A DNA stretch of 64,000 nt, taken from NCBI GenBank assembly GCA_965261085.1, contig OZ253442.1, positions 4,128,001 to 4,192,000 of the forward strand, given 5' to 3'. The DNA comes from a bacterium (GTDB lineage Bacteria; UBA8248). Below the pieces are notes generated by a model. That model made no database searches, was not told the origin of the DNA, and saw nothing but the letters and a program-made list of their open reading frames with translations. Below, piece after piece: positions 24,618 to 54,261 of the stretch (its first letter is position 1; the number at the start of each line of letters is the position of its first letter). The translations under genes were made by a program, and so were the position numbers.

Positions 24618-24669
24618 AATCTAGGGCAAGGGGTCTCAAACGCGGGCCTCGCAAATGCGGGGAAATGCG
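24618..24669 (-). promoter_or_regulatory. Shared late-type promoter, copy upstream of head-tail module
   Basis: Minus strand CGCATTTCCCCGCATTT (24669-24653), N29, TAGATT (24623-24618). Confidence 0.7.
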
Positions 24670-24672
24670 TAT

Positions 24673-24701
24673 TTGACGTCTTTTTATGAGGACTTTTTAA
24701 T
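24673..24701 (+). promoter_or_regulatory. Possible sigma70 promoter for the diadenylate cyclase gene
   Basis: TTGACG-N17-TTTAAT in AT-rich intergenic DNA; imperfect -10. Confidence 0.3.
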
Positions 24702-24879
24702 TTTGCTAATTGTAAATATCAGGAAAATGCGGTAACATACGGAAAATTATGGAGTTGCGGACGAAGCGGGTGGTCCCGGCGTCTACCAATTCTGGATTCT
24801 ACGCCCGCCACTCGGAAATTCCCGGAATCGCCGAGCGACAAAGACCGCCCCTTTATTAACGTGGACGAGGTTTAATCTC

Positions 24880-26175
24880 ATGTGGGGCGTCGCTCAACCG
24901 GCATTGAATTTCATCCAGAAGCTCTCCTGGAACCATATGCTCGACATCGGGATCATGTGGTTTCTGCTCTACCAGGTATATATTCGTTTCAAGGGCACCC
25001 AGGCGATGCGTCTCCTCGTGCGCGTATTCGCAGTATGGCTCATCTATCTCGCCTCCCAGGCCGCTGGTCTGCACCTGACCTCATTCCTGCTGTGGGCCAT
25101 CTGGATTGCCGTTCTCATCTTGTTTCTCATCAATTTCCACGGAGAAATCCAGAAGATATTCTTCCAGCTCAACCCGGTGCGCAGAATATCCACCCTGCTG
25201 CGCCGGGCGATGCGCATCCGCCTGCCGGACGAGAGCGTCGCCACCATCGCAGGCTCCGTATTCTCGCTCGCGGCCAAGAGCTTGGGAGCCATCATCGTCG
25301 TGGAACGCCGCGATTTGACCGAAGCGCTCTTGAACAGCCCGGGTGAGGAGATCGAGGCGGTCATCCAGCCCACGCTTCTCGATTCCATCTTCTTCAAGGG
25401 GGCGCCCTACCACGACGGCGCCGCCGTGGTTCACGAGAACAAGGTCTCGCGCGCGGGCTGCCTCCTGCCCCTTTCGGAGAACCGCGCCCTGCCGCCTGAG
25501 TTCGGCACGCGCCACAGGGCGGCGGTGGGCATCACGGAGCGCTGCGACGCCCTGGCGATCGTCATATCCGAGGAACGCGGAGAGATCACCTGCGTGGAAG
25601 GCGGCCTTATCAAGGCGATGAAAGATGAAGATGAACTCGCCTCCTGGCTCACCACGCGGCTGCGCGCGGCCCGAGGGGCGGGACAGACGAAAAGGCGCAT
25701 ATCGCTTGGCCACGTTTTCGATAACTGGCGGCCCAAGCTCGCCGCGCTGGCCGCCGTTATTTTCCTCTGGTCGCTCGGCGGGCAGGAAAACCAAAATCCG
25801 CAGAATTTCTTCCCGCAACTCGAAAGCAAGGTAGAGGAAGAATTCCGGGTTCCACTCCATTATTACAACATTCCGAACGGCGTCACTCTGCCGGCCGATG
25901 CAGTGAAGGTGGTCAAAATCCGCCTCAGGGGCAGGCGCGATCTACTGAACTACATCGACGCCACCCGTCTGCGCATGAACGTGAACCTCGCCAAAATGAC
26001 GCCCGGCGCGCATTCGCGCACGCTATCGAGCCGCGATATCGACCTGCCGAGCGACCTCGAATTCCTGAGCGTGGAACCCAAGGCCTTGGAACTGAACCTC
26101 GCCAAAGCCCCCGCGCCTGAGAAAATGACGAAATCGAGCGCCTCCACAGAAACGCCGGAGTCCTCGAACTTTTAA
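24880..26175 (+). CDS. dacA: Membrane diadenylate cyclase (DacA/CdaA) fused to YbbR/CdaR-like domain
   Basis: Three N-terminal TM segments, GAIIVVER, HDGA, GTRHRAAVGITE, ISEERGEI; C-terminal NWRPKLAAL TM then YbbR-like VKIRLRG. Confidence 0.85.
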   Translation: MWGVAQPALNFIQKLSWNHMLDIGIMWFLLYQVYIRFKGTQAMRLLVRVFAVWLIYLASQAAGLHLTSFLLWAIWIAVLILFLINFHGEIQKIFFQLNPVRRISTLLRRAMRIRLPDESVATIAGSVFSLAAKSLGAIIVVERRDLTEALLNSPGEEIEAVIQPTLLDSIFFKGAPYHDGAAVVHENKVSRAGCLLPLSENRALPPEFGTRHRAAVGITERCDALAIVISEERGEITCVEGGLIKAMKDEDELASWLTTRLRAARGAGQTKRRISLGHVFDNWRPKLAALAAVIFLWSLGGQENQNPQNFFPQLESKVEEEFRVPLHYYNIPNGVTLPADAVKVVKIRLRGRRDLLNYIDATRLRMNVNLAKMTPGAHSRTLSSRDIDLPSDLEFLSVEPKALELNLAKAPAPEKMTKSSASTETPESSNF

Positions 26176-26250
26176 GACCCCTCTTTTCAGATACTTGAAT
26201 TTTCAGCCCTCAAAAATTTGCTTTTTTCGTGCAAAGAGCCGATATTGAAA

Positions 26251-26378
26251 GGACCGGGCTATCGTCGCCGAGACGTCCATGGCGCTTTGAGGAGCGATAG
26301 GGGCGAACCATCTTTGATGGTCCTCGGCGTCAGCCGAGTGAGGCGGTAAGGAGCCGACAAAGAAGTCGACTCCGGTCC
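26251..26378. ncRNA. Candidate multi-stem structured RNA (family not recognised)
   Basis: Closing stem GGACCGG/CCGGTCC enclosing ACCATC/GATGGT, CTCGGC/GCCGAG, GGAG.CGAC/GTCG.CTCC and CTATCG/CGATAG stems. Confidence 0.45.
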
Positions 26379-26570
26379 GGATCAAGGTAACCCGTCAAAG
26401 GAAGGAGGATGCGATGATATTCACAATAAATCGCTTCAGCCGTGCGGAGACGCTATCCTCCCCGGCCCCATTGCATCGCCGGGCGGGGAGGAAACCTCAA
26501 GGCTGATGCCTTTATAAAGGCGGCAAAACGCCTTATTGAGGTGAGACGAGTTCTCACCCTGAAAAGAAGA

Positions 26571-26610
26571 AAAAAAGAGAGCGGGATGCAACGTCCCGCT
26601 CTTCTTTTTT
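26571..26610. terminator. Bidirectional intrinsic terminator
   Basis: A-run, GAGCGGGA/TCCCGCTC stem, T-run. Confidence 0.75.
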
Positions 26611-26806
26611 ATCCGCTCTTGGCTTCCAGTTTCCGCATTTCGATTTCAAGCTGCTGGAGCCTGTTCTTGATCATGTTGAAGTCGTACTCGAACCCCTCGG
26701 CGAGCAGCATCAGGCCTTTATACAACTGGTGTTTTTCCGGTTCCTCCTCCTCGTTCACCGAGTCGAACATCTCGACGAAAACCTCTCTTGCATGATGAAA
26801 GCTCAA
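26609..26806 (-). CDS. Small hypothetical coiled-coil protein
   Basis: AAGGAGG SD before TTG; 65 aa with C-terminal heptad pattern; ends in terminator. Confidence 0.6.
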   Translation of the reverse strand: MSFHHAREVFVEMFDSVNEEEEPEKHQLYKGLMLLAEGFEYDFNMIKNRLQQLEIEMRKLEAKSG

Positions 26807-26941
26807 CGCGCATTCCTCCTTTTAGAATGAACACTACGAAGTGAAGTAATAATCCTTTTTGCGGGAAGAACCCCGCTTGTATCTCTGCTTGAATCCATCG
26901 CACCGACAAATAAACCACAACGCACTCAAGGAGTCATCTTC

Positions 26942-27439
26942 ATGCCGGAAAGACCGAACACGCCGCAAGTCATCCTCCGCCACATCCAGGGCACACAGCT
27001 TCAGATGTTCACCACCACGGGCAAGCACTCCTACGTGCTCGACGAGCCGGAAACCCGAGGAGGCACGGACCTGGCCGCCACTCCGTTTGAGTTCTTCATC
27101 GCCGGACACGCGGGCTGAGGCCTCTACACGCTGCTGGGAGCAGCGAAGGCCAAGGGCATCCACATCGAGGACGTGGAAGTCCACGCGGAGTTCAAGCGAA
27201 ACATCTCGCCGAAGTTTCACGGCGATTATCACGGGGACCCGGAGCGAAGAAAACTCGCCATCGGCGTCATTCGCACGAGCTATTACATCCACGGCGACGT
27301 ATCCGAGGAGCAAAAGGCGGAGCTTCTCGATGAGCTCGACAACTGCCCCATCCACAACACGCTGATGACGCCGCCCAAGCTCGAGGAGCGAATCGTCGTA
27401 TTAGGAGAAGACGAAACCGCACCCAATGAAGTTTCATAA
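26942..27439 (+). CDS. OsmC-family selenoprotein (Sec at codon 59)
   Basis: AAGGAG SD; DEPETRGGTDLAATPFEFFIAGHAG-UGA(27116-27118)-GLYTL...CPIHNTL; hairpin CGCTGCT-GGG-AGCAGCG at 27129-27145. Confidence 0.8.
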
Positions 27440-27475
27440 TGGCGGAGAAAGAAGACGGTTTTTCAGAATCGGGAA

Positions 27476-27949
27476 TCAATAGGAAATCGTATCGTCCATC
27501 TGCTCCCACAACCTGAAGGATTCGAGCGCTTCACTCTCCAGGAGCCGCGTTGCATCCAGTTTTCTCTCATGAACCGGCAAGGTAATTTCCTTGTAGAGAA
27601 ATTCATCGGAAAACCCAATCGCATCGGCCTCAACGATGGTATTTCCATAAAACATGCGCTCAATCCTCGCCCAGTAAATGGCGCTCAAACACATCGGGCA
27701 AGGCTCGCAACTCGTGTATAACTCACACCCGGACAAATCGAAATTTTTCAGTTTCGCGCTGGCCGCCCGTATGGCGAGCATTTCGGCATGGGCGGTGGGA
27801 TCGCAAGAAGTCGCCACCCGGTTCGTGCCCTCGCCGATAATCTCGCCGTCCTTGACGACGACCGACCCGAAAGGCCCGCCCAGCCCCTCCCTCACGTTTT
27901 GAGAAGCGAGCGATATCGCCCTTCTCATGAAAGATTCCCGAGTCGTCAT
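27476..27949 (-). CDS. guaD: Nucleoside/guanine deaminase (cytidine deaminase fold)
   Basis: GGPFG, DPTAHAE, LYTSCEPCPMCLSAIYWARI. Confidence 0.8.
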   Translation of the reverse strand: MTTRESFMRRAISLASQNVREGLGGPFGSVVVKDGEIIGEGTNRVATSCDPTAHAEMLAIRAASAKLKNFDLSGCELYTSCEPCPMCLSAIYWARIERMFYGNTIVEADAIGFSDEFLYKEITLPVHERKLDATRLLESEALESFRLWEQMDDTISY

Positions 27950-28156
27950 TTTCGCTATCTCCCGTTTGGTTCCACTTTTTCGCCGCTGTTTGCTCTTCGG
28001 CGCGTTTTAAGTTTTTCTCCAGATTCGCCTCATCATAACTTGTTTTTGGAATGGTTTACATTCATTTTGTAGGTTCTTCTTTATCGTTCTCCAAAAACCG
28101 GAGCCTGGAACGAGAGAGGCGCCACTTTGTGAAATTCGCAACCCAAAAAGGAATTG

Positions 28157-29062
28157 ATGATGAAAATCGGATTTATCGGACTGGGAAACATGGGGGCGGG
28201 CATGGCTGCCAACCTCCAGAAAGCTGGCTATGAGCTCGTCGTACACGACATCGCCCCGGAAGCGGCGGCTGAGCACTTAGAAAGAGGCGCCCTCTGGGCG
28301 GACACTCCCGAAGAGGTGGCCCGCGCATGTGAAATCATCTTCACTTCCCTGCCCGGCCCCAAAGAAGTCGAGAGCGTCGCCACGGGGCCGAACGGCATCC
28401 TCTCAGGCATCAGCGCGGGAAAAGTCTATATCGACTTGAGCACGGGATACCCCACCATCGTCCGCAGCATCCACCAGAAGTTCGCAGAAACAGGCGCGCA
28501 CATGCTGGACGCCCCCGTGAGCGGCTCCACCATAGGCGCGAACACGGGACGCCTCGCGATCATGGTGGGGGGCGATAAAGAGGTGTATGAGCGCTGCAAG
28601 CCCGTACTCGACGCCATCGGGGACCGCCCCACCTACACCGGCGGCATCGGCACCGGCACCGTCTGCAAGCTCGCCCACAACTGTCTGGGCTACGGCATTC
28701 AGGCCATTGCGGCGGAATGCTACACCCTGGGCGTCAAGGCGGGCGCCGATCCCAAAGCCGTGGCCGAGACGATCTTAAACGGCGCGGTGGGCCGGGGCGT
28801 ACACTTTCACTTCGTCTTCCCCGAAACTCTCTTCAAGGGAAAATTCGACGAGCCCCACTTTCCCATGAAGGGCGCGGTGAAAGACGTAGGGCTGGCGCTT
28901 GAGCTCAGCCGCGAGTATGACGTGCCCATGGCGATAGGCAACATCGCCTACGGGGAACTCATTGCGGGCGTGAACCGAGGATGGGGAGAGGATGACGCCA
29001 GGCGCGCCATGACGCTCCAGGAAGAGCGCGCGGGCGGCGCGCAGATGCGGATTTCAGAATAG
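28157..29062 (+). CDS. 3-hydroxyisobutyrate dehydrogenase-family NAD(P) oxidoreductase
   Basis: IGFIGLGNMG, LDAPVSG, MVGG, KLAHN. Confidence 0.9.
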   Translation: MMKIGFIGLGNMGAGMAANLQKAGYELVVHDIAPEAAAEHLERGALWADTPEEVARACEIIFTSLPGPKEVESVATGPNGILSGISAGKVYIDLSTGYPTIVRSIHQKFAETGAHMLDAPVSGSTIGANTGRLAIMVGGDKEVYERCKPVLDAIGDRPTYTGGIGTGTVCKLAHNCLGYGIQAIAAECYTLGVKAGADPKAVAETILNGAVGRGVHFHFVFPETLFKGKFDEPHFPMKGAVKDVGLALELSREYDVPMAIGNIAYGELIAGVNRGWGEDDARRAMTLQEERAGGAQMRISE

Positions 29063-29075
29063 GAGATTTTGCGGG

Positions 29076-30080
29076 ATGAAACACGGTATCGCCATGCTGC
29101 CCCCTGCGCCCGAGACCTACGCGCACTGGTGCCGGCTCTCCGAGGAGGCGGGCTTTGACGTCATCTGGGTGCCGGATTCCCAGTCTCTCTACAGAGAGCT
29201 GTACGTTTCATGCGCCATCTGCGCGGCTAACACCACGCGTGCGCTGCTGGGTCCCAACGTCACCAACCCGCTCACGCGCCACCCGGCGACGGCGGCGAGC
29301 GCCATCGCCACGGTGGACGAGTTCTCGGGGGGCCGCGCGTTGTTCGGAATCGCCACGGGCGACAGCGCCGTCCTGAACCTGGGGTTACGCCCCGGACGGG
29401 TGGACGACATGAGAGACTACGTGCTCGCCATGCGCGGGATGCTCGAAGAAGGTGCTGCGCACTACCAGGGAAAACCCTGCACGCTGAACTGGCATAAAAA
29501 GCGCATCCCGCTCTACATCGCCGCCGAGGGGCCGCGCACCATCCGGCTTGCGGGCGAGATAGCGGACGGCGTCACAATCGGAACCGGCCTCACTCCTGAA
29601 GTTGTGGCCGATTCCCTCACCTGGCTCGAGGAGGGCGCGAGAAAATCGGGCCGCAAACTGAGCGACTTGGACATCTGGTGGCTGGCGAAGGTGAACGTGC
29701 GCGAAGACGGCGAGACCGCGCGGGAGGAGATTCGCATGGCGCTTGCCGCGAGCGCGCACCACGCCTTTCGCTTCACGCTCGAGGGCAAGCGAATCCCCAG
29801 AGAACTGCTCTCCGCCGTCGAGACCCTCAAAAAAGAATACGCGTTTCACGAACACGAGATGGTGGACAAGCAGACGAACGCCGAACTCGTGGACAGGCTC
29901 GGCCTTCGCGAGTACCTGCTCGATCGCTTCGCTATCGCAGGCTCCCCCGCCGAATGCAGAGAAAAGGTGAAGGCCATGAAAGCAACCGGCGTCGAGAACT
30001 TGAGAATCGCCGCACACGTTCACGATAAGCCCGCCTTCATCCGGGCGTGGGGCCGCGAGATTATCAGCCAAATCAAGTAA
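29076..30080 (+). CDS. LLM-class oxidoreductase (Mer-like, possibly F420-dependent)
   Basis: PDSQSLYRE, VTNPLTRHP, GIATGDSA, AAEGPRT. Confidence 0.85.
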   Translation: MKHGIAMLPPAPETYAHWCRLSEEAGFDVIWVPDSQSLYRELYVSCAICAANTTRALLGPNVTNPLTRHPATAASAIATVDEFSGGRALFGIATGDSAVLNLGLRPGRVDDMRDYVLAMRGMLEEGAAHYQGKPCTLNWHKKRIPLYIAAEGPRTIRLAGEIADGVTIGTGLTPEVVADSLTWLEEGARKSGRKLSDLDIWWLAKVNVREDGETAREEIRMALAASAHHAFRFTLEGKRIPRELLSAVETLKKEYAFHEHEMVDKQTNAELVDRLGLREYLLDRFAIAGSPAECREKVKAMKATGVENLRIAAHVHDKPAFIRAWGREIISQIK

Positions 30081-30097
30081 TCAAAGAGGATATCTTC

Positions 30098-31099: not shown

Positions 31100-31250
31100 C
31101 AAACTTAAATTCAGCGTGAGTGAAGCCCAAAGCCTTACTGGGTGGATACTATGGGTTCCCCTCGGGCCGCCGCTTCGGTTAGAATGACTGGAAATTATCG
31201 AAACAGGCGAATTTCGACTTCCCCGGACAATCTCTCACAGGAGGGTGGAC

Positions 31251-31805
31251 ATGACCGAGATGACGAAGCAAAAAGAAAAAATTCTCGTGTACGAACCCGT
31301 GGCGGAGGCCTCGGGCGAGAGCGCGGTCATGGCCGCGCGGCCCGAGAGCTTAAACGGCAAGAGCGTCGGCCTCATCAACAACACCAAGGATTTTACGGAT
31401 GAGATTTTAGGCGTCATGGGCGCCGCGCTTGAGAAACAGTTCCCCGGCGTGCGCGTCGTGCGCTACAGAAAAGAATCCGTGAGCGGCGCATCGCCTGCCC
31501 TCATGGAGCAGGTGGAAGGACAGTGCGACGCCGTCGTTTCCGCTCTTGGCGACTGAGGCTCCTGCACGTCGTGGAGTATCCACGACAGCGTCGCTTTAGA
31601 GAAAAGAGGGCTGGCCACGGTCACCATCGTTACCGACGCGTTTGAGACCTACGCCAGGCAACTCACCAAGCTGCACAAGATGCGCGACCTTCCTCTCATA
31701 GCGCTTCCCCATCCCATCGCGGGCAGAAAGCGCGAGGAGGTGGATGAGATGTCGGCGGAAGCGAGTGCGTATCTGGCAGCAGCCCTCACGCAGGCGAGTA
31801 GGTGA
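31251..31805 (+). CDS. UGSC-family selenoprotein (in-frame UGA at 31554-31556)
   Basis: ALGD-UGA-GSCTSWSIHD...LEKRG...LPHPI continues in frame to TGA at 31803-31805; perfect hairpin GTCGTGGA-GTA-TCCACGAC begins 11 nt after UGA. Confidence 0.85.
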
Positions 31806-31812
31806 TACAAAG

Positions 31813-32913: not shown

Positions 32914-32931
32914 GGGGTACAAGCCTTCGGC

Positions 32932-33749: not shown

Positions 33750-35123
33750 CTACCCCCCCAGCTTCATGCCGAACTGGCTCGCGATGTGGGTGATGAGCTT
33801 GCCTGCGGCCTCATCGCTCACCCAGCCGCGCGCGGTCGCCGTTTCGAGCGCGGTGCTCACGCGCAAAAGCGCCTGGGATATCTTCTCGGTATCGCGGACG
33901 GATATCTCCGGCATAACGGGGGAGACGCCCGAGCGCAGCGCCTCTTCGGGCAACACGCCCGCGCGGTGGGCTTCCTCTAACTGCTTGTCGGCCATGGCCT
34001 GTAGAATGTGGCGCACGGTGCGCTGGCGGCGCGTCATCTTCTTGAGCGTGGGCTGATCCATCGATTCGGCGGAGGCGCGGTTCACGTCCTCTCCCTGGGC
34101 GAACCAGTGGGAAGGGATGCCCACGCCACCCAGGAGAAGGCCCCGCATCATCTTGGCGATGCCCTGCGCGCCGGTTTCTCCACCTTTCAAATCAGGCGAG
34201 ACGGCCTGCCACTCCTCTTTTTCGTTGTGTACGCGCACGCTCGAGGGCTTGGGCGCGACGCCGTTCTCGGAAAGCCACTCGGCTATCTTCTCGGGGCCTG
34301 CGCCTTTTAAGGTGACGTCGTAGATGAAGCTGTTCTGGAGGCGCGCGCGCTCCACGGCGTCGAAGATGAAGCGCTCATAGGTGTCTATCCAGTCGATGGC
34401 GGCGAGCAGGTCCGATGCCCCGCGAGCGGCGTCACTCGCCTTGTTGATCTGGAACAAAAACGCCTCCCCGTCCGTAAAGCGCGCACGCTCCCTCTGGGCG
34501 GATGCGCTCAGATAACCGCGCGGGTCGCCGCCAAGGACCGTCCTGACCCGCTTGCCCTTGCGCGCCGCCCCGCCCGGTCCTTCGGCGCGCAGGACGACCC
34601 CGATGGGCAAGGCGCAGTTGTCCGGATCCATCACCACCTCTTCTATCAGGCGGGGGCTGACGTAGCCCAGCCGGACGCGCCCCTCGAAGCGCGAGACGGC
34701 GACCGGCAGGAGAAGTTCACCGAAAATGCCGAGTTCAGAGACCAGCCGCTCGAAGCGGATATCCATCTGGTTCACGGGATCGCCCCAGAACGCCTTCACG
34801 ACGCGCAGGGCGCGCTCATCCTCCCCGTGCCAGCTTATTCCCTCGCCCACGACGTGATCGGTCACGATTTCGATCAGGCGCTGGCCCATCAGGTTGGTGA
34901 GCCACAATTCGTGCGCCAAGGCCTGCATGCGCGCGTGCGTGTGGGGAGATACACCGCCCCGCCCCTCACCCAGGGGCCGCCAGATTCTCTCATCCGGATC
35001 TATCTCGGCGCTCATGCGCCCTGAACGCTGCGCGGCCGCTTTCACTCGCGCCGCATCCCCTTTGTTCCCGGATCCCCTCTCCCGCCTGGGAGCCTTCACG
35101 CTCTTTGCTTTCTCCATCTTCAT
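33750..35123 (-). CDS. Phage portal protein
   Basis: IVTDHVVGEG, ELGIFGE, RGASDL, SVRVHNEKEEW, GIPSHWF...NRASAESM; follows terminase. Confidence 0.8.
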   Translation of the reverse strand: MKMEKAKSVKAPRRERGSGNKGDAARVKAAAQRSGRMSAEIDPDERIWRPLGEGRGGVSPHTHARMQALAHELWLTNLMGQRLIEIVTDHVVGEGISWHGEDERALRVVKAFWGDPVNQMDIRFERLVSELGIFGELLLPVAVSRFEGRVRLGYVSPRLIEEVVMDPDNCALPIGVVLRAEGPGGAARKGKRVRTVLGGDPRGYLSASAQRERARFTDGEAFLFQINKASDAARGASDLLAAIDWIDTYERFIFDAVERARLQNSFIYDVTLKGAGPEKIAEWLSENGVAPKPSSVRVHNEKEEWQAVSPDLKGGETGAQGIAKMMRGLLLGGVGIPSHWFAQGEDVNRASAESMDQPTLKKMTRRQRTVRHILQAMADKQLEEAHRAGVLPEEALRSGVSPVMPEISVRDTEKISQALLRVSTALETATARGWVSDEAAGKLITHIASQFGMKLGG

Positions 35124-35767
35124 CTCCTCCTGAGCATCCGCTGATCAAAAGACTGCGGAACCACCGTTCCCCCGGCGAGGGGGGCCAGTATTCCCTCGCT
35201 CCGCGCCAGGGATTCGGCCAGCCGCGCATAGGCGCAGGCGAAGCCGAAGTGGTTCTCGTTTCGCTCATACGCCAGCACCGTCTCCCCGGAGGAGCGGATG
35301 CGCGGCTTTTTCCTCAAATTCATCAGATGACGCTCCACCTCGTTCAGGAGCGCCTCCTCATTGGTGTCCTTTGGATTCGGCAGCAAGACCCGCCCGGCCC
35401 CCTCATGGAACTCCTCCACGAGGTGATCGAGAAGGTCCTCGCGGTTCATCCGCACATGGCGGCGCTCGACGCCCAAAAACGAGACGTCCTTGGTCTGCAT
35501 TTCGCCCTCGGTGTGCCGCCAGATGAAGCCGCCCTCGGGGTTCAAGTCGTACACCGCGCGCGCGGCCTGGGTGTGGGGTCCGCCGTCGACCACGAACGCC
35601 TCCACGCCCAAGCCAGAAAATATCGCGCGGCACCGCTCGATGAGCCGCTCGATGGGCGGCGCCTCAAAATAAATCCACCTGGCGTGCCGGTACTCCCCGC
35701 GCTCGCGCACCGCGACCGCGCAAACATCCCCCGTATCGATACCGCAGAAGCGATGGCGCGCGCTCAT
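35120..35767 (-). CDS. Terminase large subunit nuclease domain, encoded as separate gene
   Basis: ATG at 35767 overlapping upstream TGA, GGAGG SD; FCGIDTG, FVVDGGP, NHFGFACAYA RNase H-like motifs. Confidence 0.7.
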   Translation of the reverse strand: MSARHRFCGIDTGDVCAVAVRERGEYRHARWIYFEAPPIERLIERCRAIFSGLGVEAFVVDGGPHTQAARAVYDLNPEGGFIWRHTEGEMQTKDVSFLGVERRHVRMNREDLLDHLVEEFHEGAGRVLLPNPKDTNEEALLNEVERHLMNLRKKPRIRSSGETVLAYERNENHFGFACAYARLAESLARSEGILAPLAGGTVVPQSFDQRMLRRR

Positions 35768-36822
35768 GCGGGCGCCTCCGCCAGGCGATAGGGCGCGGCG
35801 TCGCGCAGCGTTCTGAGCAATTCGCGGGAGATCGGCTGGGTATCGCCCGCATCGGGGGTGGCGAGCGTGGAGCAGCGAAAGCGCGCCTTTTCGCTCGGAA
35901 GACCGGCGGCGGCCCATTTCGCCGTGATCCGATCGAGGCGCACCGCGCCGACCGCAAGCTGGGAGAGGCGATAGCTCCTGTGCCGGGGCTTCACTCGCGC
36001 GGCCTCCCACCGCCCCGCTCCCCTGTCGAGCGCGCCGCCACAGTCCGGGCACGCGAGGCCGCCTGCGCGCAGGATACCGGGCCAGTTCTCCTCCATGACG
36101 CTCTCTTTTCGGCACGCGGGACACCTCACATGCCAGCGCCTCCGGTCCCCGCCCTCGTACATGGCGTGAATGCCCGCGCCGGGGGTTCTCCCCACGGCGA
36201 GATTGAGCGTCAGGGCGAGGGGCGAGGCGTCGATGCGGTCGTTCGACCACTTGAGATTATCCGGCGGGAGATCGTCCACCTCGTCTCTGATCAGGACGTC
36301 GAGCGGAATCGAGATGGCGTTGCCGATGTCCTTGAGACCCAGAATGTACAAAAACCGCGAGCCCCCGCGGCCGGGGAACTCCTTTAAGCCCTTGGGCGAT
36401 GCGCCCCGGTATTTCCCCTCGCGCATGATTGAAGCGATTCTTTCGCCCCTGAGCGCCGGGCGCACGCGCGTCTGATCGAAGCGGTCGGCGAAATCCTGAT
36501 CGGGCAGAAAATAGCCCACGTTCAGGCGGTGGACGATGACGCAGTAAAACGCAAAGCCTATTGCGAGGGTTGTCATGCCCACCTGCGCGCCCTTCAAGAC
36601 GCTGATGGTCTGATCGGGCGTGCGGTTTTTCAGAACTTCATCGAGGACGGCAGTGGGTTCTGAGAGCGCCTCTCTGCCTTCGAAGGTGAACACGCCCTTG
36701 TCGGTCGACATCTCGCTCGCAAGAAATCGCCCCAGCCCGCGCCCCTCCCCCGAAAAGCGCGAAGACCCCCCGGCGGCGAGGACCATGCCGGGCGTTCGGA
36801 TGATTTTTCGGGGCTTGCGCAA
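35764..36822 (-). CDS. Terminase large subunit ATPase domain (lambda gpA-like)
   Basis: Probable TTG start after GGAGGAG; KGAQVGMT (Walker A-like), LIRDEVD (Walker B), WHVRCPAC...CPDCG Zn ribbon, SYRLSQL. Confidence 0.8.
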   Translation of the reverse strand: MRKPRKIIRTPGMVLAAGGSSRFSGEGRGLGRFLASEMSTDKGVFTFEGREALSEPTAVLDEVLKNRTPDQTISVLKGAQVGMTTLAIGFAFYCVIVHRLNVGYFLPDQDFADRFDQTRVRPALRGERIASIMREGKYRGASPKGLKEFPGRGGSRFLYILGLKDIGNAISIPLDVLIRDEVDDLPPDNLKWSNDRIDASPLALTLNLAVGRTPGAGIHAMYEGGDRRRWHVRCPACRKESVMEENWPGILRAGGLACPDCGGALDRGAGRWEAARVKPRHRSYRLSQLAVGAVRLDRITAKWAAAGLPSEKARFRCSTLATPDAGDTQPISRELLRTLRDAAPYRLAEAPA

Positions 36823-36873
36823 AACCGGAACTCCTCCCACTCGAGGATGCCATACGCATCCTCATGGGGGAGG

Positions 36874-36925
36874 AATATAGGGGATGGGACCTGTGAACCT
36901 CGCCGCGCAAATGCGGGGAAATGCG
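36874..36925 (-). promoter_or_regulatory. Shared late-type promoter, copy upstream of terminase-portal module
   Basis: Minus strand CGCATTTCCCCGCATTT (36925-36909), N29, TATATT (36879-36874). Confidence 0.72.
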
Positions 36926-36935
36926 CGCTCAGGCT

Positions 36936-48129: not shown

Positions 48130-48156
48130 CGCACACCTCTCGTCTTTTGTCGGGAA

Positions 48157-49893
48157 TTATCCTTTCGGGGGAATCACCGGCAGCACCACGTGGGATGGAT
48201 GCGCCGGGCCGGTGTGCAGCGTCACCTTGCCGCCGAACAGTTCCGTCGGCCTGTCCTCTTTCAAGTCATGCTTGAAGGGCCCCACGCCGTAATAGACGCG
48301 ACCCGATATCTTCGCCGCGGAAGGCTCGTAGCCCGGCCAGACGTAATCGCGCCCGCGAACGCTCAAGGCGAGGCGGTATTCCCTGGGGATCACGATGGAA
48401 GTCGGCCAGATCTCGACGTCCAGTTCGTATATCTCACCGGGCGTCAGCGGCTGAATCTCATCGTGCGTGTGGTATGGCCTATAGGGCAGCGTGAGATTTT
48501 CATCCAGCTTTCTGTGCGAGGCCCTGAGCCACCCGATGGCCACGGGCGTATGCGGGTCGTTCGCGCCCCGGTAGACGATCTCCGTCATGTCCGGCGTGAA
48601 TACGCGCAGGTTGAGGAACAAATCGGCATCCTCCGTATCCGAGGAGACGAACAGCTTGGCCGCCACGGGGCCCGTGATCTCCGTTTCCTCGGCGAAAGGC
48701 GGCGAGACGTAGATTAAGCCGTCTCCCAGGGCGTCATAGGTTTTCTCCCGCTCGTTCGTCTGGGGATCGGCCCGGAAGGCGCCGGAACCTGAATGCAGGT
48801 AATACTTCGTCCACTGCGTGCGCGCGATGGGCCACTCGCTTTCCGCGCGCGCCACGAATTTCTCGCCCGGATGCCGCACCTGGAGCAGGACCTTGGGCTG
48901 CTCCTCCCAGCCGGTATCCTCGCCTTTCAGGAAATGGCCAAAGAATTTCTTTTGAAGCGCGACGCCGTAATCGGTATAAAAATGCGTGAAATGCTCGAGC
49001 CCGTGCATCTCGAGCCATTTCTCCTCGGTGGCCGATTGCACGAAGCCCTCCGTGTTGCCCCTGGGATGCAGGCCCACGCCGCCCCAGTTTCCCGCCGATA
49101 AGAGCGGCACGTTGATTTTCGAGTAATCGGGCATGCGCGCGCGCCAGTAATCGTCATCAAGGGGATGATCCAGTATGTCGCGCCCGTAATCGCTCCTGTT
49201 CGAGGCCAGTTCTTCTTCGCTCAGGTTCGCGGGGCCGGATATCCAGTCGCCGTTCATGCGGCTCTTGATGCCGCGATGGCCCTTGCCGTGCTGGCGGGGC
49301 ACGACGGCCTCCCGGTGCCAGGTGTCCGGGAAGCGGCAGGCGATGCCCCCGTGGTGGGCCAGATCGCGGTAGAAATCCGCCGCTCCCTCCCAGACGCACA
49401 TGGCGGCCAGGTGCGGCGGCTGGAGCGATGCCACCTGCCACTGGTTCATCCCGTAGTAGGAGATGCCGTTCAGCCCCACCTTCCCGTTGCTCCAGGACTG
49501 CCCTCCCGCCCATTCGATGCAGTCGTGAAAATCCCTGGCCTCGCGCGGCGACCACACCTCGAGATAACCCGGCGAGCGGCCCGCACCCCTTGAATCCACC
49601 CGCACGCAGGCGTAGCCGTCCGGCACCCATTTTTCGGGGTCCACGAGCTCCCAGTTCTGGTATTTGTTGCTCGTCCCCATGATGGTCTCGGGATAATCGT
49701 TCACCATCAGGCTCCACTGGTGGGGATAGCCGTCCTGTAAATGGAGCCACTTGGCGTAGGGGCCGTAGCTCATGATGACGGGATAATGCCCATCATCGTC
49801 GGGCCTATAGACATCGCAGCGCAGCACCACGCCGTCGTCCATCTCGATGGGTACGTCCCAGTCGATGCGCATCCCGTCTCTTGCCTCGCTCAT
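48157..49893 (-). CDS. CocE/NonD family hydrolase (tandem paralogue)
   Basis: Same motifs; collinear with the neighbouring copy. Confidence 0.92.
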   Translation of the reverse strand: MSEARDGMRIDWDVPIEMDDGVVLRCDVYRPDDDGHYPVIMSYGPYAKWLHLQDGYPHQWSLMVNDYPETIMGTSNKYQNWELVDPEKWVPDGYACVRVDSRGAGRSPGYLEVWSPREARDFHDCIEWAGGQSWSNGKVGLNGISYYGMNQWQVASLQPPHLAAMCVWEGAADFYRDLAHHGGIACRFPDTWHREAVVPRQHGKGHRGIKSRMNGDWISGPANLSEEELASNRSDYGRDILDHPLDDDYWRARMPDYSKINVPLLSAGNWGGVGLHPRGNTEGFVQSATEEKWLEMHGLEHFTHFYTDYGVALQKKFFGHFLKGEDTGWEEQPKVLLQVRHPGEKFVARAESEWPIARTQWTKYYLHSGSGAFRADPQTNEREKTYDALGDGLIYVSPPFAEETEITGPVAAKLFVSSDTEDADLFLNLRVFTPDMTEIVYRGANDPHTPVAIGWLRASHRKLDENLTLPYRPYHTHDEIQPLTPGEIYELDVEIWPTSIVIPREYRLALSVRGRDYVWPGYEPSAAKISGRVYYGVGPFKHDLKEDRPTELFGGKVTLHTGPAHPSHVVLPVIPPKG

Positions 49894-50071
49894 GTCTCGC
49901 CTTTCTAAAAAAAGGTGGAATCACCGTCGGTGACATATTTTGGGATGAGGGGAAATATAACCGAGCGGCGGTGCGGCGTCCAGATGTGGGGGGTGTTTCT
50001 TATGTCGGGAGGGGGGTTGAAGCTCTAGTCAAACTTGATGATGCAAAGCATTTCATACGTCGTGATGCGCG

Positions 50072-50209
50072 TTACAAAGAGGCCAGGAGATCGTCCACGG
50101 AATCGTAACTTTTAATCCTGCCCTCTCTGTAATCATCATCCGCCTCGTCTTCCATCGCCTGCCATTCATCGGAATAAAACCAAGAGAGGTCCTCTTGCAT
50201 AGTATCCAT
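50072..50209 (-). CDS. 45-aa acidic antitoxin-like peptide (below ORF-track cutoff)
   Basis: MDTMQEDLSWFYSDEWQAMEDEADDDYREGRIKSYDSVDDLLASL resembles type II antitoxin C-termini. Confidence 0.55.
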   Translation of the reverse strand: MDTMQEDLSWFYSDEWQAMEDEADDDYREGRIKSYDSVDDLLASL

Positions 50210-50437
50210 GGTGCCCTCGTAATTATGAACTGGCGGTTTTGTCTGCTACATTTTGGGTGAATATGAAGCGCAGTATTATCGAACCTATCACAAGATGATC
50301 CGAAAGCGCCTGAGACATTACGTGGTGCAGTCTGGAACCACCATAATTTGCGTCCCATGCATACCATTATTCAGATGGAGTTATTGGCAAAGGGTTTTAA
50401 TGGCAAGCAGCTTTCGTGGAAAATTCTCATGGCGTAA

Positions 50438-50632
50438 TCAAATCTTATCATCTATCCCAGCCGACTTGAGGATTCCGTTTGCTGTATGCTTGGATTTTGT
50501 GCTTTTAGGGACACTTACATGAACACTCGTATCAATACTGACCCATATTTCGTGGGATCCTTTGCCTTCTCGCCAAAACACAAAATTTGAGTCCTTGAGT
50601 TTCTGGGTCAATTTTCTGTAAATGTCTGTCAT
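50438..50632 (-). CDS. hicA: HicA-family toxin
   Basis: REGKGSHEIW, VSVP, HTANGILKSAGI. Confidence 0.88.
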   Translation of the reverse strand: MTDIYRKLTQKLKDSNFVFWREGKGSHEIWVSIDTSVHVSVPKSTKSKHTANGILKSAGIDDKI

Positions 50633-50904
50633 TGAGCAAAAACTTCACGGGTCGGACGTTCCTCATTGAATGGACGTTCCCAAACTACAGTTGAAAACAA
50701 GTCTTTAATCTTTCTCGTGGTGAACTCAGGGCCTTGAATATGGTTAGCGACTATAAGATCGCCAACGAGATCATTCATTACCTCTTCAAATTCATCTATT
50801 GTTTTTGCTTCAATATGCAGTCCCTTGATATTACTTTCAGAAACAAAAACTTCAGCCTCTTCGTCCCATGCAGTTTTTACAAAGAAGGTCATATTCGAAC
50901 TCAT
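50629..50904 (-). CDS. DUF1902/HicB-like antitoxin
   Basis: AWDEEAEVFVSESNIKGLHIEAKTIDE; ATGA overlap with hicA. Confidence 0.78.
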   Translation of the reverse strand: MSSNMTFFVKTAWDEEAEVFVSESNIKGLHIEAKTIDEFEEVMNDLVGDLIVANHIQGPEFTTRKIKDLFSTVVWERPFNEERPTREVFAQ

Positions 50905-51278
50905 GATTTTCTCCCTCGAACAACAAATACGGGTTCAATTCCCTCCACGGCCTCCCCATCTATTTATTTGACGTGGATATCTTCTTATCCGCCGCTCTAA
51001 AGATGGTTTTTTCAATTTTTCGTGGCGTAGCTGGTATCAGATAAACTACGCTCCTCACCGGACGCCCCGGTGATTTGGAACCCATGGTTTCCCCTGTGAT
51101 ATTTAGTGTAGGCGACTGTCAACAGAAATATCGCCCCATGTAACGGAAATGTCAATGTTCCGCATATGGAACGAAAACAATTTTGATGGCCGCCACTATT
51201 TTGGCGTGCCAAGTTACGCATATAATTCCCACTTATTCATTTCTTTAAATCGAGGCGATTAAAGTCACTCCCCCACCC

Positions 51279-51851
51279 TCACTCGATGCGCTCCTCGAGC
51301 GTTCGCGTTGACTCCTCGACGATTTCGCACACCTTGTCCATCACCTCGGGATGCTCGCGGAAAGATTCGCGCACTTCCTTGACGATCGCCATCTTGGCGG
51401 CGGCGAAGCCATCCTCGTACTGGAGCCTCAGCCGCTCGGCCGATATGCGGCTGCGCTCGAGCGCGTTCACCATCTGCGCGAGTTTCTCGGGCGTCAAGCC
51501 CTCGAAGGATTCTTTCCCCATCTGCGAGACGGCCTCGACCGCCTGGGCCATCAGCATCCGCCGCGCGGCGGCGGCCACCTTCTCGCCCGGGTCCCTGCCC
51601 TCGCCGTCATAGGCCATAACCTCCTCAATCAACTCATCCACCATGGCTTCCACCCGCTTGGTCTTGCGGATGCCCTCGAGCAGGCGGTTGTTGCGCGCGC
51701 CCACGGAGCCGAGCGCTATCTTCTCCCCGGTGGCCTCCTCGAAGGCCTCGGCCACCTCCTTGTAGGTTTTCCCCTCGGCGAGCAGAGGGTCGACGATTTT
51801 CTCGGCGCCATATTCCACTACTTTCGACCTCCGTCCCCGCCTCCTCTCCAT
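51279..51851 (-). CDS. Mu gp27/DUF3486-like protein (putative small terminase)
   Basis: RGRRSKV N-terminus, TYKEVAEAF HTH-like segment, helical C-terminus; TGATG coupling to upstream gene. Confidence 0.65.
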   Translation of the reverse strand: MERRRGRRSKVVEYGAEKIVDPLLAEGKTYKEVAEAFEEATGEKIALGSVGARNNRLLEGIRKTKRVEAMVDELIEEVMAYDGEGRDPGEKVAAAARRMLMAQAVEAVSQMGKESFEGLTPEKLAQMVNALERSRISAERLRLQYEDGFAAAKMAIVKEVRESFREHPEVMDKVCEIVEESTRTLEERIE

Positions 51852-52183
51852 CAGAGATCTCCCACGAGGATGTCTGGAGAGGCGGAGACGGCTCCTTCGA
51901 GCAGGCCGCGCCCCTTGCGGGTCAGGTGCGCCTCATAATCCGTCAACAGGCGCCCGAAACCGCCCGGGGTGCGCTTTTCCACCAAACCCCGCTCCGCCAG
52001 ATCGTCCACGAAGGCCTCGAGCGTCTCACGGCCCAAGGGCGCGCCGTCTTCATGGTGGCCCGCCTCGCGCAGCGCACTCCAAAGGAGAAGGCTGCCCACG
52101 CACGATTTCACCTGAAAGGCTTCCTGATAATAGAGCGTCTTCAATATGTCGCCGCGCAGGACGCGGGCCGCCAACTCGTTCAC
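51851..52183 (-). CDS. Mu gp26-like winged-helix protein
   Basis: RGDILKTL...DLAERGLVE...AHLTRKGRGLLEG; GAGGAGG SD; precedes gp27-like gene. Confidence 0.6.
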   Translation of the reverse strand: MNELAARVLRGDILKTLYYQEAFQVKSCVGSLLLWSALREAGHHEDGAPLGRETLEAFVDDLAERGLVEKRTPGGFGRLLTDYEAHLTRKGRGLLEGAVSASPDILVGDL

Positions 52184-52191
52184 AATGAAAC

Positions 52192-52349
52192 ACCTCCTCG
52201 ATGACTTTCATACCGGTGCGCCGGACGCCGCTCGCCGAAATCCAGGCCTCTTCCAAGCACTGAACTACCTCCTCGATGACTTTCATACCGGTGCGCCGGA
52301 CGCCACTCGCCGAAATCCAGGCCTCTTCCAAGCACTGAACTACCTCCTC
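52192..52349. repeat. 75-bp tandem duplication (two copies plus 8 bp)
   Basis: Units start at 52192, 52267 and 52342; one mismatch (G52230/A52305). Confidence 0.95.
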
Positions 52350-52403
52350 CATGACATTGATACTGAAATACCAAAGACCCCCGCGCGCGGCGGAAACTCA
52401 CCC

Positions 52404-52455
52404 AATATAGAACGCGGCGCAGGTTCGGGCGGCACGGAAAATGCGGGGAAATGCG
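52404..52455 (-). promoter_or_regulatory. Shared late-type promoter, copy upstream of gp26/gp27-like module
   Basis: Minus strand CGCATTTCCCCGCATTT (52455-52439), N29, TATATT (52409-52404). Confidence 0.72.
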
Positions 52456-52518
52456 GACTCGGGCGCGTTGAGAAAAGAATTTCGGAGTTGCACAATGCCG
52501 CCAGAGGAGGAGGCTTCG

Positions 52519-52911
52519 ATGCGCTCGAGTATCTGGATATTCGCCGCACTCGCCACATTCGCGCTGTGGTTCGCGTGGCTGCCCGACGCGCCGGCCCTGG
52601 GCCACGGGGAGGAGGAAATCCTCCTGTTCGCCTATCTGGCGGAAGAGCGCAACCTCCTGAGAATCTCGACCGCCATCGTGGGCGGCATCATCCTGGCGAT
52701 GGGCGCCTTCATCACCCAGCAATCGCGCGCCGAGGCGAGAGAGCACGCGGGACCTGAATTCTCCGGCTTCAAGGTGATGATGCCGGGGCTGCTCGTCACC
52801 TCCCTGGGCGTCGCCGTGCTGTTCACGGCCGCCTTCATCCTGCCCGAGCAGATCAAGATCTTGCACGATCATCCCCTGGAGCATATCGAGACGAAAACCA
52901 CGGAAAAATAG
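52519..52911 (+). CDS. Hypothetical membrane protein
   Basis: GAGGAGG SD; signal/TM segment plus two further TM segments. Confidence 0.6.
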   Translation: MRSSIWIFAALATFALWFAWLPDAPALGHGEEEILLFAYLAEERNLLRISTAIVGGIILAMGAFITQQSRAEAREHAGPEFSGFKVMMPGLLVTSLGVAVLFTAAFILPEQIKILHDHPLEHIETKTTEK

Positions 52912-52939
52912 GAACGGCCCGCGAGCCGCCCTCGTCCCC

Positions 52940-53362
52940 TCACCGCGTCTTTCCCGTCAATTTCTCGACGGTGCGAAGCGCGCCCAGACCCAGCATCCCC
53001 AGGGTGAGTTCCAACAATCCCTCCGCCGAGACGGGATAGGGCACGAGCTCACCGCTCATCAGCACCTGCCGCGTCCAGAGCCATGCGCCCAGGGCGTACT
53101 GGGGGATGAAGTAAAAGGCGAGCGAGACGCCGCAGGTCCACAGGATGAACGGCCTGCCCCCGGCGACGAAGGCGCTTCGGTGGGCGGCCTCTATCTTGTT
53201 GATCTCGTTCTGGGCTTCGGCGGGGCGCATCATCAGCTTTTGTTTTATCGCCTCCGCCGCGCGTCTCTCATCAGGCGTCTCGACGAACTTGTCGATGACG
53301 TTGGCGACACCCTCCGCCGCCGTGATGACGCCGCCGCCGATGAGGTTTTCCAAAAAGGCCAT
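52940..53362 (-). CDS. 3TM-type holin (family described as 'holin for gene-transfer release')
   Basis: IDKFVET, EINKIEAAHRSAFVAGGRPFILW, GMLGLGALRTVEK; TGATG coupling to lysozyme. Confidence 0.8.
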   Translation of the reverse strand: MAFLENLIGGGVITAAEGVANVIDKFVETPDERRAAEAIKQKLMMRPAEAQNEINKIEAAHRSAFVAGGRPFILWTCGVSLAFYFIPQYALGAWLWTRQVLMSGELVPYPVSAEGLLELTLGMLGLGALRTVEKLTGKTR

Positions 53363-53775
53363 CACGCGCTCCTCATGCTCTCGGCGACCCTGCCCGCCCG
53401 GGCCGGCAGTTCCCTCGCGTAATCGGAATCGAGCGCCTCCACAGCCGCGCGCTCGTAATCGCCCTCTCTCAGCGCGGCCCACATTCTCTTGAAACCCAGA
53501 AGGCTCGGCACGCCCATGTTGTAGGCCATGTTCAAAACCGCGCGCTGCGCGAGGGGTCTCAGATTTTTATACACCTCGCCGACGCGGGAGCGCTCGAGTT
53601 CTCCGGCCATCAGGCCGAGCCGATGCCGGAGGAGCAGTTCCGCTTCGGCTTGCGATATGCCGTCTTCCAGCAGCGTTCCGTAGCCGATGGTCTTCTTGCG
53701 CTTGCCGTCGAGATACACTTTCGCGACGAAACCCTCCTCGCGCTTGATATCCTCTACGAGTTCGTCCGTGAGCAT
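53362..53775 (-). CDS. Phage lysozyme (GH24, T4-like)
   Basis: IKREEG...YLD...TIGYG, NMAYNMG, FKRM, EALDS. Confidence 0.9.
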   Translation of the reverse strand: MLTDELVEDIKREEGFVAKVYLDGKRKKTIGYGTLLEDGISQAEAELLLRHRLGLMAGELERSRVGEVYKNLRPLAQRAVLNMAYNMGVPSLLGFKRMWAALREGDYERAAVEALDSDYARELPARAGRVAESMRSA

Positions 53776-53993
53776 CCCTCACCCTCCCCTTCAGGCAAGT
53801 CCCCGGCCTCACCCACCTCTTGCATCAGTCGCCGGAGCGCCGCCGCGCCCTTTCGAGCGCTCGCACGATGCGCATAGGCCTGGCTCGACGCCAGGATGCG
53901 TCCGTTCCTCGCTCGCACACGGAAGCGATGCCGCCCGGATTTATCCCTGAAAATATCGACGGGGCGATATTTGGCTCTCTTTACGGCCTGCAT
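53754..53993 (-). CDS. DUF1508/YegP-family protein
   Basis: IFRDKSGRHRFRVRARNGRILASSQAY. Confidence 0.75.
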   Translation of the reverse strand: MQAVKRAKYRPVDIFRDKSGRHRFRVRARNGRILASSQAYAHRASARKGAAALRRLMQEVGEAGDLPEGEGEGCSRTNS

Positions 53994-54199
53994 ACGAAAC
54001 CCCCCAGGAAAAAGCCCAACACCACGAGGCATGCGCCCGCAACGATCAGGCGCAAGACAGTGCGCTTTCCCCCAGCCCAGCGCGATAGCATGGCGTCCGT
54101 TTTTCCTTCGAATTCATTTTTCTCAGACATTGCTTTCCTCTCTTTCCGGTAGCGAAATCCCGCGCGTCGCCCGCGAGCGATGCGCCTTCTATGCGGGAG

Positions 54200-54261
54200 A
54201 GTTTATGTCTTGATAGCGCGCGCCCTATGACGGAAAATGCGGGCAACTGCGGGGTGATGCG
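54200..54261 (-). promoter_or_regulatory. Shared late-type promoter, degenerate copy upstream of lysis module
   Basis: Plus strand AAATGCGGGCAACTGCG (54235-54251, 15/17 match) with a third unit to 54261; minus-strand TAAACT (54205-54200) at the same N29 spacing. Confidence 0.6.

Follow-up and report, generated by a model that had tools for sequence, protein, structure and literature searches.

The known lineages of gene transfer agents (GTAs) are a handful: the RcGTA type, BaGTA, VSH-1, Dd1 and VTA. A related regulatory logic is familiar from phage Mu, whose middle and late promoters lack a −35 element and have one factor (Mor, C) bound just upstream, serving several late operons; the Mor and C sites are dyad-symmetric and centred near −43 (overlapping about −30 to −55). 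In Rhodobacter capsulatus, according to passages of PMC6363796, the scattered genes of RcGTA, which comprise the core cluster, head spikes, tail fibre, lysis genes and a maturation protein, are raised in concert, and the promoter of the structural cluster is bound by GafA, a dedicated DNA-binding activator (on GafA see also PMC9638019). CcGTA (GafYZ) and BaGTA are described as integrating several loci by activation plus antitermination (PMC11150451; bioRxiv 10.1101/2024.11.20.624540). Here we analyse a 64,000-nucleotide stretch of a bacterial genome (contig OZ253442.1, positions 4,128,001 to 4,192,000), hereafter the window, in which four modules of phage-like genes each stand behind the same promoter-like sequence on the minus strand. 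With a probability of about 0.7, we read these modules as parts of a fragmented, vertically inherited, GTA-like domesticated phage that is run by a shared, activator-dependent promoter without a −35 element.

One putative promoter architecture at four phage-like modules

The hallmark of the putative promoter is a 17-nt motif, AAATGCGGGGAAATGCG on the plus strand, which on the coding strand (CGCATTTCCCCGCATTT) reads CGCATTT-N3-CGCATTT, a direct repeat with a 10-bp period. Exact copies lie at 24653, 36909 and 52439; the one at 54235 deviates at two positions, and an additional copy with three mismatches (at 54245, offset by 10 nt upstream of this fourth site) amounts there to a third repeat unit. 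At up to three mismatches the window thus holds five matches against 0.33 expected (15-fold), a number reached in 0 of 100 dinucleotide shuffles. Read directly on the minus strand, the motif is followed after exactly 29 nt by a TAnnnT hexamer at all four sites, and no TTGACA-like hexamer lies 16–18 nt 5′ of any of the four −10-like hexamers. All four sites are intergenic and oriented toward phage-like genes. A preliminary description of this DNA had reported three exact 17-mers and one 15/17 copy, intergenic and upstream of modules, together with a −10-like hexamer exactly 29 nt downstream, no obvious −35 and a 10-bp direct repeat; the motif scan of the window and the minus-strand reading bear out each of these points, and the architecture that the four sites share recurs before most of the orthologous modules across the genus.

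Reckoned from an assumed start about 7 nt past the hexamer, the two strong units occupy −58 to −52 and −48 to −42, and a weak third unit (consensus GTCATCG) occupies −38 to −32, all on one face of the helix. A position weight matrix built from 76 sites of the genome has an A at +47 in 47 of them and a T at +51 in 46, and it further reveals a weaker GCCGT..A..G stretch right after the motif.

The first copy (CGCATTTCCCCGCATTT; 24653..24669, minus strand) lies at about −58 to −42 of the promoter of the capsid and tail-tube module, is exact, and recurs at the corresponding position in 20 of 21 orthologous loci; its hexamer, TAGATT (24618..24623, minus strand), is found 29 nt past the motif and is TAGATT, TAAATT or TAGTTT in all 20 motif-bearing loci. 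The second (36909..36925, minus strand), likewise exact, begins immediately 3′ of the stop of a YajQ-like gene and is kept in 20 of 21 loci despite a species-specific upstream flank, followed 29 nt on by TATATT (36874..36879, minus strand), the hexamer of all 20 motif-bearing loci. The third (52439..52455, minus strand) is an exact copy in a divergent intergenic region, with TATATT at 52404..52409 (minus strand) 29 nt past it, and is present in 17 of 21 loci; it is missing in genomes G034, G007, G001 and G016, where the best candidates have five to eight mismatches. The fourth (54235..54261, minus strand) comprises three 10-bp units, CGCATCACCC CGCAGTTGCC CGCATTT, with two and three mismatches in its overlapping matches, and is kept in 18 of 19 loci; its hexamer, TAAACT (54200..54205, minus strand), again 29 nt past the motif, is replaced among relatives by TAGAAT, TAGGAT or TAGATT where it is not TAAACT itself.

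The capsid promoter has an additional feature. About 47 nt upstream of the first motif copy (5′ ends about 63 nt apart) there is a degenerate second site, CCGTATGTTACCGCATTT (24716..24733, minus strand), which hints at a looped or bent upstream complex. An A/T-rich stretch separates CCGTATGTTACCGCATTT from the motif, and the site is retained in the most distant species of the genus as CCGCATGTTGCCGCACTTT.

The preliminary description had also predicted that a genome scan with this signal would mark the missing tail modules, and so it did. In the genome to which the window belongs (G000; 4.27 Mb, one contig), gene calls beyond the annotated open reading frames (ORFs) being made with a crude custom ORF scorer, the scan led to five genes, T1–T5, at genome position 3,886,474 and to a tape-measure-like gene at 3,892,383, some 260 kb away. 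The latter encodes a 578-aa protein with matches to tape-measure PHROGs (best 1.5e-06). T1–T5 have no Pfam or PHROG match; their nearest Atlas clusters are viral, and those of T3 include Phage-tail_3/TipJ-like clusters, which are leads rather than proof. Across the complete genomes of the genus, the tail modules lie 0.26–1.8 Mb from the head modules.

Conservation in the genus and its sister genera

We looked for six of the phage genes in 22 other species of the genus; the resulting counts are inflated by the kinship of the genomes. The genes for the major capsid protein (MCP), the large and small terminase subunits (TerL and TerS), T1 and the tape-measure-like protein are single copy and free of internal stops in 20 of the 22; the holin gene is present in 18, and two genomes, G009 and G010, lack all six. 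These two have 0 and 3 motif matches at up to one mismatch, and most others have 35–104. The full signal, that is the motif, a spacer of 28 or 29 nt and the hexamer, precedes MCP in 20 of 21 loci (the sole miss being a contig end), TerL in 20 of 21, TerS in 17 of 21, the lysis module in 18 of 19 (the flank of the remaining locus being just 250 nt long) and T1 in 21 of 21. Around these fixed elements the upstream flanks and the interior of the spacer diverge freely, and before TerL the neighbouring gene itself differs. Synonymous divergence (dS) in the adjacent coding regions is 0.06–1.2, and the ratio of nonsynonymous to synonymous rates (dN/dS) is 0.10–0.34 overall and 0.10–0.23 for MCP.

Outside the genus the geometry persists and the code changes. 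Of 41 further genomes of the family, 32 contain the capsid gene. Among seven capsid loci of other genera that we examined, six carry a unit of CGAATTT, CGAAATT or CGCAATT, followed by N29 and TA(G/C)ATT or TATTCT; the seventh has too little flank. In the complete genome of one sister genus, G042, CGAATTTCCCCGAATTT plus ccggtagttgg occurs 10 times on one strand within 37 kb, with CGAATTT as the unit and ccggtagttggct directly after the motif at 10 of 10 sites, ahead of o110–TerS (o110 being the 110-aa gene that precedes TerS), TerL, portal, MCP, the region after the tube gene, and T1. All sites within one genome thus share that genome's version of the unit, as would be expected if they co-evolved with one trans-acting reader, and concerted change across the modules of another genus is what a dedicated trans-acting factor would predict.

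G042 also bears on the history of the arrangement. The preliminary description had argued that separate promoter copies reflect co-regulation selected after fragmentation; in G042 the modules are still collinear within about 37 kb, and each has its own copy all the same. That argument is therefore not upheld, and the multiple promoters probably predate the fragmentation and dispersal seen in the window's genus, since each module of G042 has its own copy while the element is collinear. We note that host-type genes already lie between the modules of this collinear element (loci L262–L264; 3,130,900–3,152,300), namely an adenylate-cyclase/STAND/TPR protein of 1113 aa, an M20 peptidase and a receiver-TPR protein, and that three further promoter copies precede small uncharacterised ORFs of 188, 55 and 71 aa.

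What might read the code

The geometry, with its units on one face of the helix and no −35 element, is that of an activator contacting RNA polymerase, and from the architecture and its conservation we infer that the sequence is a promoter bound by an activator. As we envisage it, the promoter would consist of two (to three) 10-bp-phased CGCATTT units, a free spacer of 29 nt (rarely 28 nt) and a TA(n)A(t)T −10 element. Most likely, a dedicated activator would bind head-to-tail on one helix face, directly 5′ of the vacant −35 position and partly over it, and would recruit the ordinary RNA polymerase holoenzyme, such that all modules fire together. The likeness to Mu late promoters drawn in the preliminary description holds for this functional logic, with a recognisable −10 in the absence of a −35, and fails for the form of the site, which is a direct repeat and not a dyad.

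A tentative candidate for the binder, with the odds some way against it, is o110 (51851..52183, minus strand), a 110-aa winged-helix protein encoded by the first gene of the TerS module and 82–98% identical in 20 of 21 loci. Its 33 homologues all come from this clade, and its AlphaFold2 model (pLDDT 90.7) finds its best fold matches among DNA binders of the MarR, PadR and TubR types. Alternatively, o110 could serve the small terminase. Two other leads were dropped. An antisense ORF (L013:4891-5283) considered as the activator looks spurious, and the notion that a motif-free o110–TerS module betrays a master regulator, which 4 of 21 species fit, was abandoned since G042 has a copy there. We also set aside a reading of the motif as an SOS box, given its position 5′ of the polymerase footprint and the absence of recA and lexA from the annotated downstream genes.

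It is conceivable that the reader is no activator but the element's own sigma-like or polymerase-associated factor, which would recognise repeat and hexamer together as a bipartite signal in place of an activator working with the housekeeping sigma factor. The rigid spacing of 28–29 nt speaks for such a factor, as does the conservation directly after the motif, complete for ccggtagttggct in G042 and weaker for GCCGT..A..G in G000, which suggests contacts that reach the −35 region. Nevertheless, the repeats lie 33–43 nt from the hexamer, centre to centre, which is more than regions 4 and 2 of a single sigma-70-type protein can bridge. Nor does gene content point that way: four Sigma70_r2 genes are present in each of G000, G007, G008 and G016, against four in G010 and five in G009, which lack the element, so that element-bearing genomes have no additional gene of this kind, a count in which atypical sigma-like proteins would be missed. 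Pfam searches found no sigma-like domain in the modules, and the ORFs between the modules of G042 yielded no DNA-binding or sigma domain. We therefore regard a sigma-like reader as unlikely.

Could the repeats instead be an operator whose repressor or silencer holds both the modules and the dispersed copies described below in the off state, with activation coming from elsewhere? GTA-like and prophage genes need tight silencing, and the many genomic copies would suit an abundant silencer. Yet the site at −58 to −42 is upstream of the polymerase footprint and does not cover the −10 element or +1; promoters without a −35 element need help to fire, and a fixed helical phase relative to the −10 is typical of activators. 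On such general grounds, silencing through these repeats is quite unlikely, and recruitment by an activator is the reading that we carry forward.

Genome-wide copies and dispersed repeats

Throughout G000 the motif is far more frequent than the modules require. It has 11 exact copies, 46 at up to one mismatch, 82 at up to two and 130 at up to three, the last forming 119 site clusters. At up to two mismatches, 74 of 77 clusters fall outside called genes, the non-genic share of the genome being 17%. The spacer to a TAnnnT hexamer is 29 nt at 30 sites and 28 nt at 13, and each of the other lengths from 24 to 27 and from 30 to 33 nt is found at one site at most. Only 29 of the 119 sites have unique flanks; nine of these are matches at up to two mismatches, eight of the nine carry a hexamer at N28/29, and six of those eight belong to phage modules, namely the four sites of the window and those ahead of T1 and of the tape-measure-like gene. 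At the two others (genome 840289 and 195209), the downstream genes are absent from the relatives tested, or in pieces in the closest one.

Most of the remaining copies sit in dispersed intergenic repeats, which are short and fall into several families. The commonest unit runs from the motif through N29, the hexamer and a short variable leader to a 31-nt core (ATCGATAAAT..TCGATAAAT) and an AT-rich stretch, sometimes with a second motif copy. The core, ATCGATAAATTCACGGGGTTTTTCGATAAAT, with the AT-rich segment containing TTGATATATA behind it, has 73 copies in the genome, 47 of which have the motif 0–400 nt upstream (mode 97 nt). Long copies show inverted TCGATAAAT units around the AT-rich centre, flanked by the motif as a direct or inverted copy. 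These repeats are short, non-coding, multi-copy and intergenic, as are miniature inverted-repeat transposable elements (MITEs), and some lie between convergent genes. A known RNA family within them was rejected: an Rfam scan of 12 repeat loci (E ≤ 1) returned only a sub-threshold match to a Brucella small RNA (24 bits vs 114), and no Rfam family matches. Judged from the repeat sequences, the dispersed copies carry a complete promoter and would respond to, and be driven by, the same factor as the modules; they may be selfish hitch-hikers, decoys or functional RNAs.

Some single occurrences complete the picture. The window itself holds a copy of the core at about 63012–63042 (plus strand), with no CGCATTT motif within 800 nt. 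Two P4-type integrase genes (393 aa by sequence reading, about 90% identical; locus L009) lie at genome 217023 (plus strand) and 3814091 (minus strand), each preceded by a three-mismatch motif copy, CGCAAATCCGCGCATTT, after which come N29, CAGAAT and part of the repeat core. In G007 (loci L199–L228) the motif rides on another repeat family, in which a conserved flank, ..GGAATCGATCG, is followed by the motif, GAGAAT, GGGAGGAGG and ATG; the repeat carries a ribosome-binding site and a small basic ORF that begins MDFGKRMMTKA, and it is present in at least 15 of 30 loci examined.

Several observations weigh against the reading of a dedicated promoter and activator. First, 90 of the 119 sites (about three quarters) have flanks that recur at other motif sites and hence are dispersed repeats, the next gene runs in the direction of the motif in 19 cases and against it in 21, and the neighbours are unrelated housekeeping genes (20 scanned). 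The motif factor could accordingly be a general one, since most copies sit in repeats beside unrelated genes in either orientation; the preliminary description had named a motif common across the genome before unrelated genes, or in random orientation, as grounds for refutation, and by its letter the proposal fails this test, which we consider too strict. Second, the tape-measure-like gene has a recognisable motif (at up to three mismatches) in only 5 of 21 loci, and TerS is without one in 4 of 21. Third, the putative recognition helix of o110 is acidic and the protein resembles known folds only modestly (E about 2e-3, TM 0.5–0.62), and the search for an activator gene with Pfam and PHROGs gave nothing for o110 or T1–T6. 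A general housekeeping promoter, for its part, was rejected, as 0 of the 119 sites lies within 500 nt ahead of a tRNA or tmRNA gene.

The repeats invite the question of whether the motif is simply the end or an inner part of a MITE-like mobile repeat that landed near phage genes by chance. The recurring flanks, the association of the motif with 47 of the 73 core copies, and the unrelated neighbours in random orientation are what such an element would leave behind. The module sites, however, share no flank with the repeats and occupy orthologous positions in up to 21 of 21 species. The distribution of the core is likewise at odds with chance landing: it is present in 45–71 copies in 15 species and in five in one more, and absent from G007, G001, G034, G016, G009 and G010, and yet the module sites exist in G016, G007, G001 and G034, all with 0 core copies. 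In G016 the only three matches at up to two mismatches in 8 Mb are the MCP, TerL and T1 promoters, so that its strong matches are the modules and nothing else. Sister genera, moreover, keep the architecture with a different unit. Chance landing is thus very improbable and already largely refuted by the comparative data, and the existence of module promoters in G016, without any repeat expansion, argues that these promoters are long-established and do not depend on the repeats. Conversely, the core family is found in 16 of 21 element-bearing genomes of the genus (G000 included) and in 0 of 2 element-less ones, a weak observation given that the latter are only two.

Gene content and nature of the element

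The first module opens with a protease–major-capsid fusion gene (MCP; 22439..24520, minus strand), which has a TTG start behind AAAGGAG and matches Pfam Phage_capsid_4 (2.3e-44) and PHROGs 4523 and 133. It continues with an HK97-gp10-like head–tail joining gene (20784..21308, minus strand; Pfam PF04883, 3.9e-08) and ends with the tail tube gene (19046..20185, minus strand; Pfam Phage_tube_2, 3.1e-12; PHROG 290, 6.8e-22). In the second module, TerL is divided into an ATPase part (35764..36840, minus strand; Pfam GpA_ATPase, 8.4e-18; PHROG 675, 5.5e-49) and a nuclease part in a separate ORF (35120..35776, minus strand), which covers positions 354–547 of the PHROG 675 profile and starts in an ATGA overlap. 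This ORF begins MSARHRFCGIDTGD, the ATGA stop/start overlap with the ATPase ORF lying at about 35764–35776. The split looks like a conserved arrangement and not an assembly error, because the two-frame form recurs in G016 at 78% identity. The portal gene follows (33750..35123, minus strand; PHROG 10963, 2.2e-46).

Behind o110, the third module encodes a Mu gp27-like TerS (51279..51851, minus strand; Pfam PF11985 at 4.8e-06, under the curated cut-off; PHROG 426, 1.3e-07). Its leader, between the promoter of site 3 and o110, contains a tandem repeat of 75 nt (52192..52363, minus strand; 2.3 copies, 95% matches). Across species the distance from the motif to TerS falls into two classes, about 528 and 603 nt, which differ by about 75 nt, and therefore the copy number of the 75-nt repeat varies between species. 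The fourth module is a lysis module, in which a 49-aa single-pass membrane ORF (53981..54130, minus strand; known from its translation, its function putative) comes first, accompanied by a DUF1508 gene, an endolysin (53362..53775, minus strand; Pfam Phage_lysozyme, 7.8e-10; PHROG 7) and a holin (52940..53482, minus strand; Pfam GTA_holin_3TM, 9.2e-12; PHROG 3427, 1.3e-23).

Head, packaging, tail and lysis genes of tailed-phage type are thus all present by Pfam and PHROGs. Neither an integrase nor a replication domain turned up in the scanned ORFs, several small ORFs being unannotated. The nearest phage capsid is 33% identical, the modules are interleaved with housekeeping genes, and the homologues carry the labels Nitrospinae, Nitrospinota or Tectomicrobia. 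Vertical inheritance in single copy under purifying selection is supported by the species counts, the conserved gene order and the dN/dS of 0.10–0.34. A set of genes that is single copy, syntenic, shared across genera, under purifying selection and in unlinked parts fits a domesticated GTA-like element, not a prophage or a remnant; the set probably comprises the genes of what is likely a new GTA-like particle, and from gene content we infer that the element produces particles. That the genes are instead decaying prophage remnants, with the motif a functionless relic of late promoters, is barely credible: host genes do interrupt the modules, TerL does lie in two ORFs, and five holin orthologues do have one in-frame stop at the 5′ edge of the match, but the genes are intact and single copy in 20 of 22 other species at dS of up to 1.2, they are present across genera, motif and hexamer are kept while neutral flanks diverge, and the split of TerL is itself conserved.

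A wider proposal, to which we would give a small though real chance of holding in full, is that of a family-wide, independently domesticated GTA in a lineage labelled Nitrospinota or Tectomicrobia that includes sponge symbionts. Its own cis-code would co-evolve with a small activator, possibly o110, and 50–100 promoter-bearing repeats per genome would be wired into the circuit, either as decoys that set an all-or-none threshold or as co-induced RNAs.

Neighbouring genes and transcript coverage

Between the modules, a Pfam scan finds a diadenylate cyclase, a deaminase, luciferase-like oxidoreductases, an ammonium transporter, an ABC transporter and peptidases. Positions 50053–59192 of the window, adjoining the TerS and lysis modules, are low in GC (44–53% vs 59%) and contain a HicA/DUF1902 pair, an N6/N4 DNA methylase and an AbiTii-like gene; this is a small defence/toxin–antitoxin island. 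An ORF at 31245–31556 (plus strand) matches only the first half of the Pfam UGSC profile (positions 2–92 of 172) and may continue through an in-frame TGA.

Six metatranscriptome runs contain small shares of the stretch. In the four that were compared, one of them labelled a sponge metagenome, the assembled contigs, in which starts are not visible, leave the phage modules between 35000 and 54900 of the window almost uncovered and cover the ammonium transporter, the binding protein and the lipoprotein, which is no evidence either way.

Comparison with known systems

The promoters of phage Mu are alike in logic; the site described here differs in being a direct repeat centred near −50, and no Mor- or C-like Pfam domain was found in the modules. 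For the form of the site there are other precedents. Lambda CII (TTGC-N6-TTGC) and winged-helix regulators of the PhoB/OmpR type bind direct repeats phased by 10–11 bp, beside or over the −35 element. They share with our site the spacing of one helical turn, a poor or absent −35 and a fixed phase relative to the −10; however, their sites straddle or replace the −35, whereas the strong units here lie one to two turns further upstream, and no receiver-domain regulator of the PhoB/OmpR kind is linked to the modules.

The dispersed copies, and only these, resemble the Correia elements of Neisseria, which are promoter-carrying miniature repeats. In both cases the repeats are about 0.2–0.5 kb long, restricted to a genus, intergenic, present in tens of copies in either orientation, and endowed with promoter-like sequence. 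In contrast to Correia elements, neither a transposase partner nor target duplication nor clean terminal inverted repeats have been established here, and the repeats are unique in carrying the promoter of a phage-derived gene set. We know of no described counterpart to a GTA promoter spread on dispersed repeats. Among the matches listed for literature on gene transfer agents together with sponge symbionts or Nitrospin-, none concerns such an element in this lineage.

What makes the system attractive is that its regulon can be read: a 17-nt code with fixed geometry locates all modules, including unlinked ones, and shifts in concert between genera. It renders testable the co-regulation of a fragmented phage remnant, the identity of the protein that reads the code, and the exchange of DNA by particles among uncultured sponge symbionts.

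The closest system as a whole is RcGTA, in which, according to passages of PMC6363796, domesticated phage genes likewise occupy several chromosomal places. The host lineage here is unrelated, lying outside the Alphaproteobacteria by the labels of the homologues. Even the packaging and head modules are separated from one another, each behind a promoter copy of its own, a shared cis-motif of the kind described here is not given for RcGTA in those passages, and the promoter recurs on dozens of dispersed repeats, differences that hold as far as those passages describe RcGTA. With CcGTA and BaGTA (PMC11150451; bioRxiv 10.1101/2024.11.20.624540), the element shares the placing of several phage-derived loci under one control. 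The means appear to differ: CcGTA and BaGTA are described as using read-through (antitermination) of long transcripts, whereas the element described here has many separate, identical putative initiation sites, as many as 10 within 37 kb in G042.

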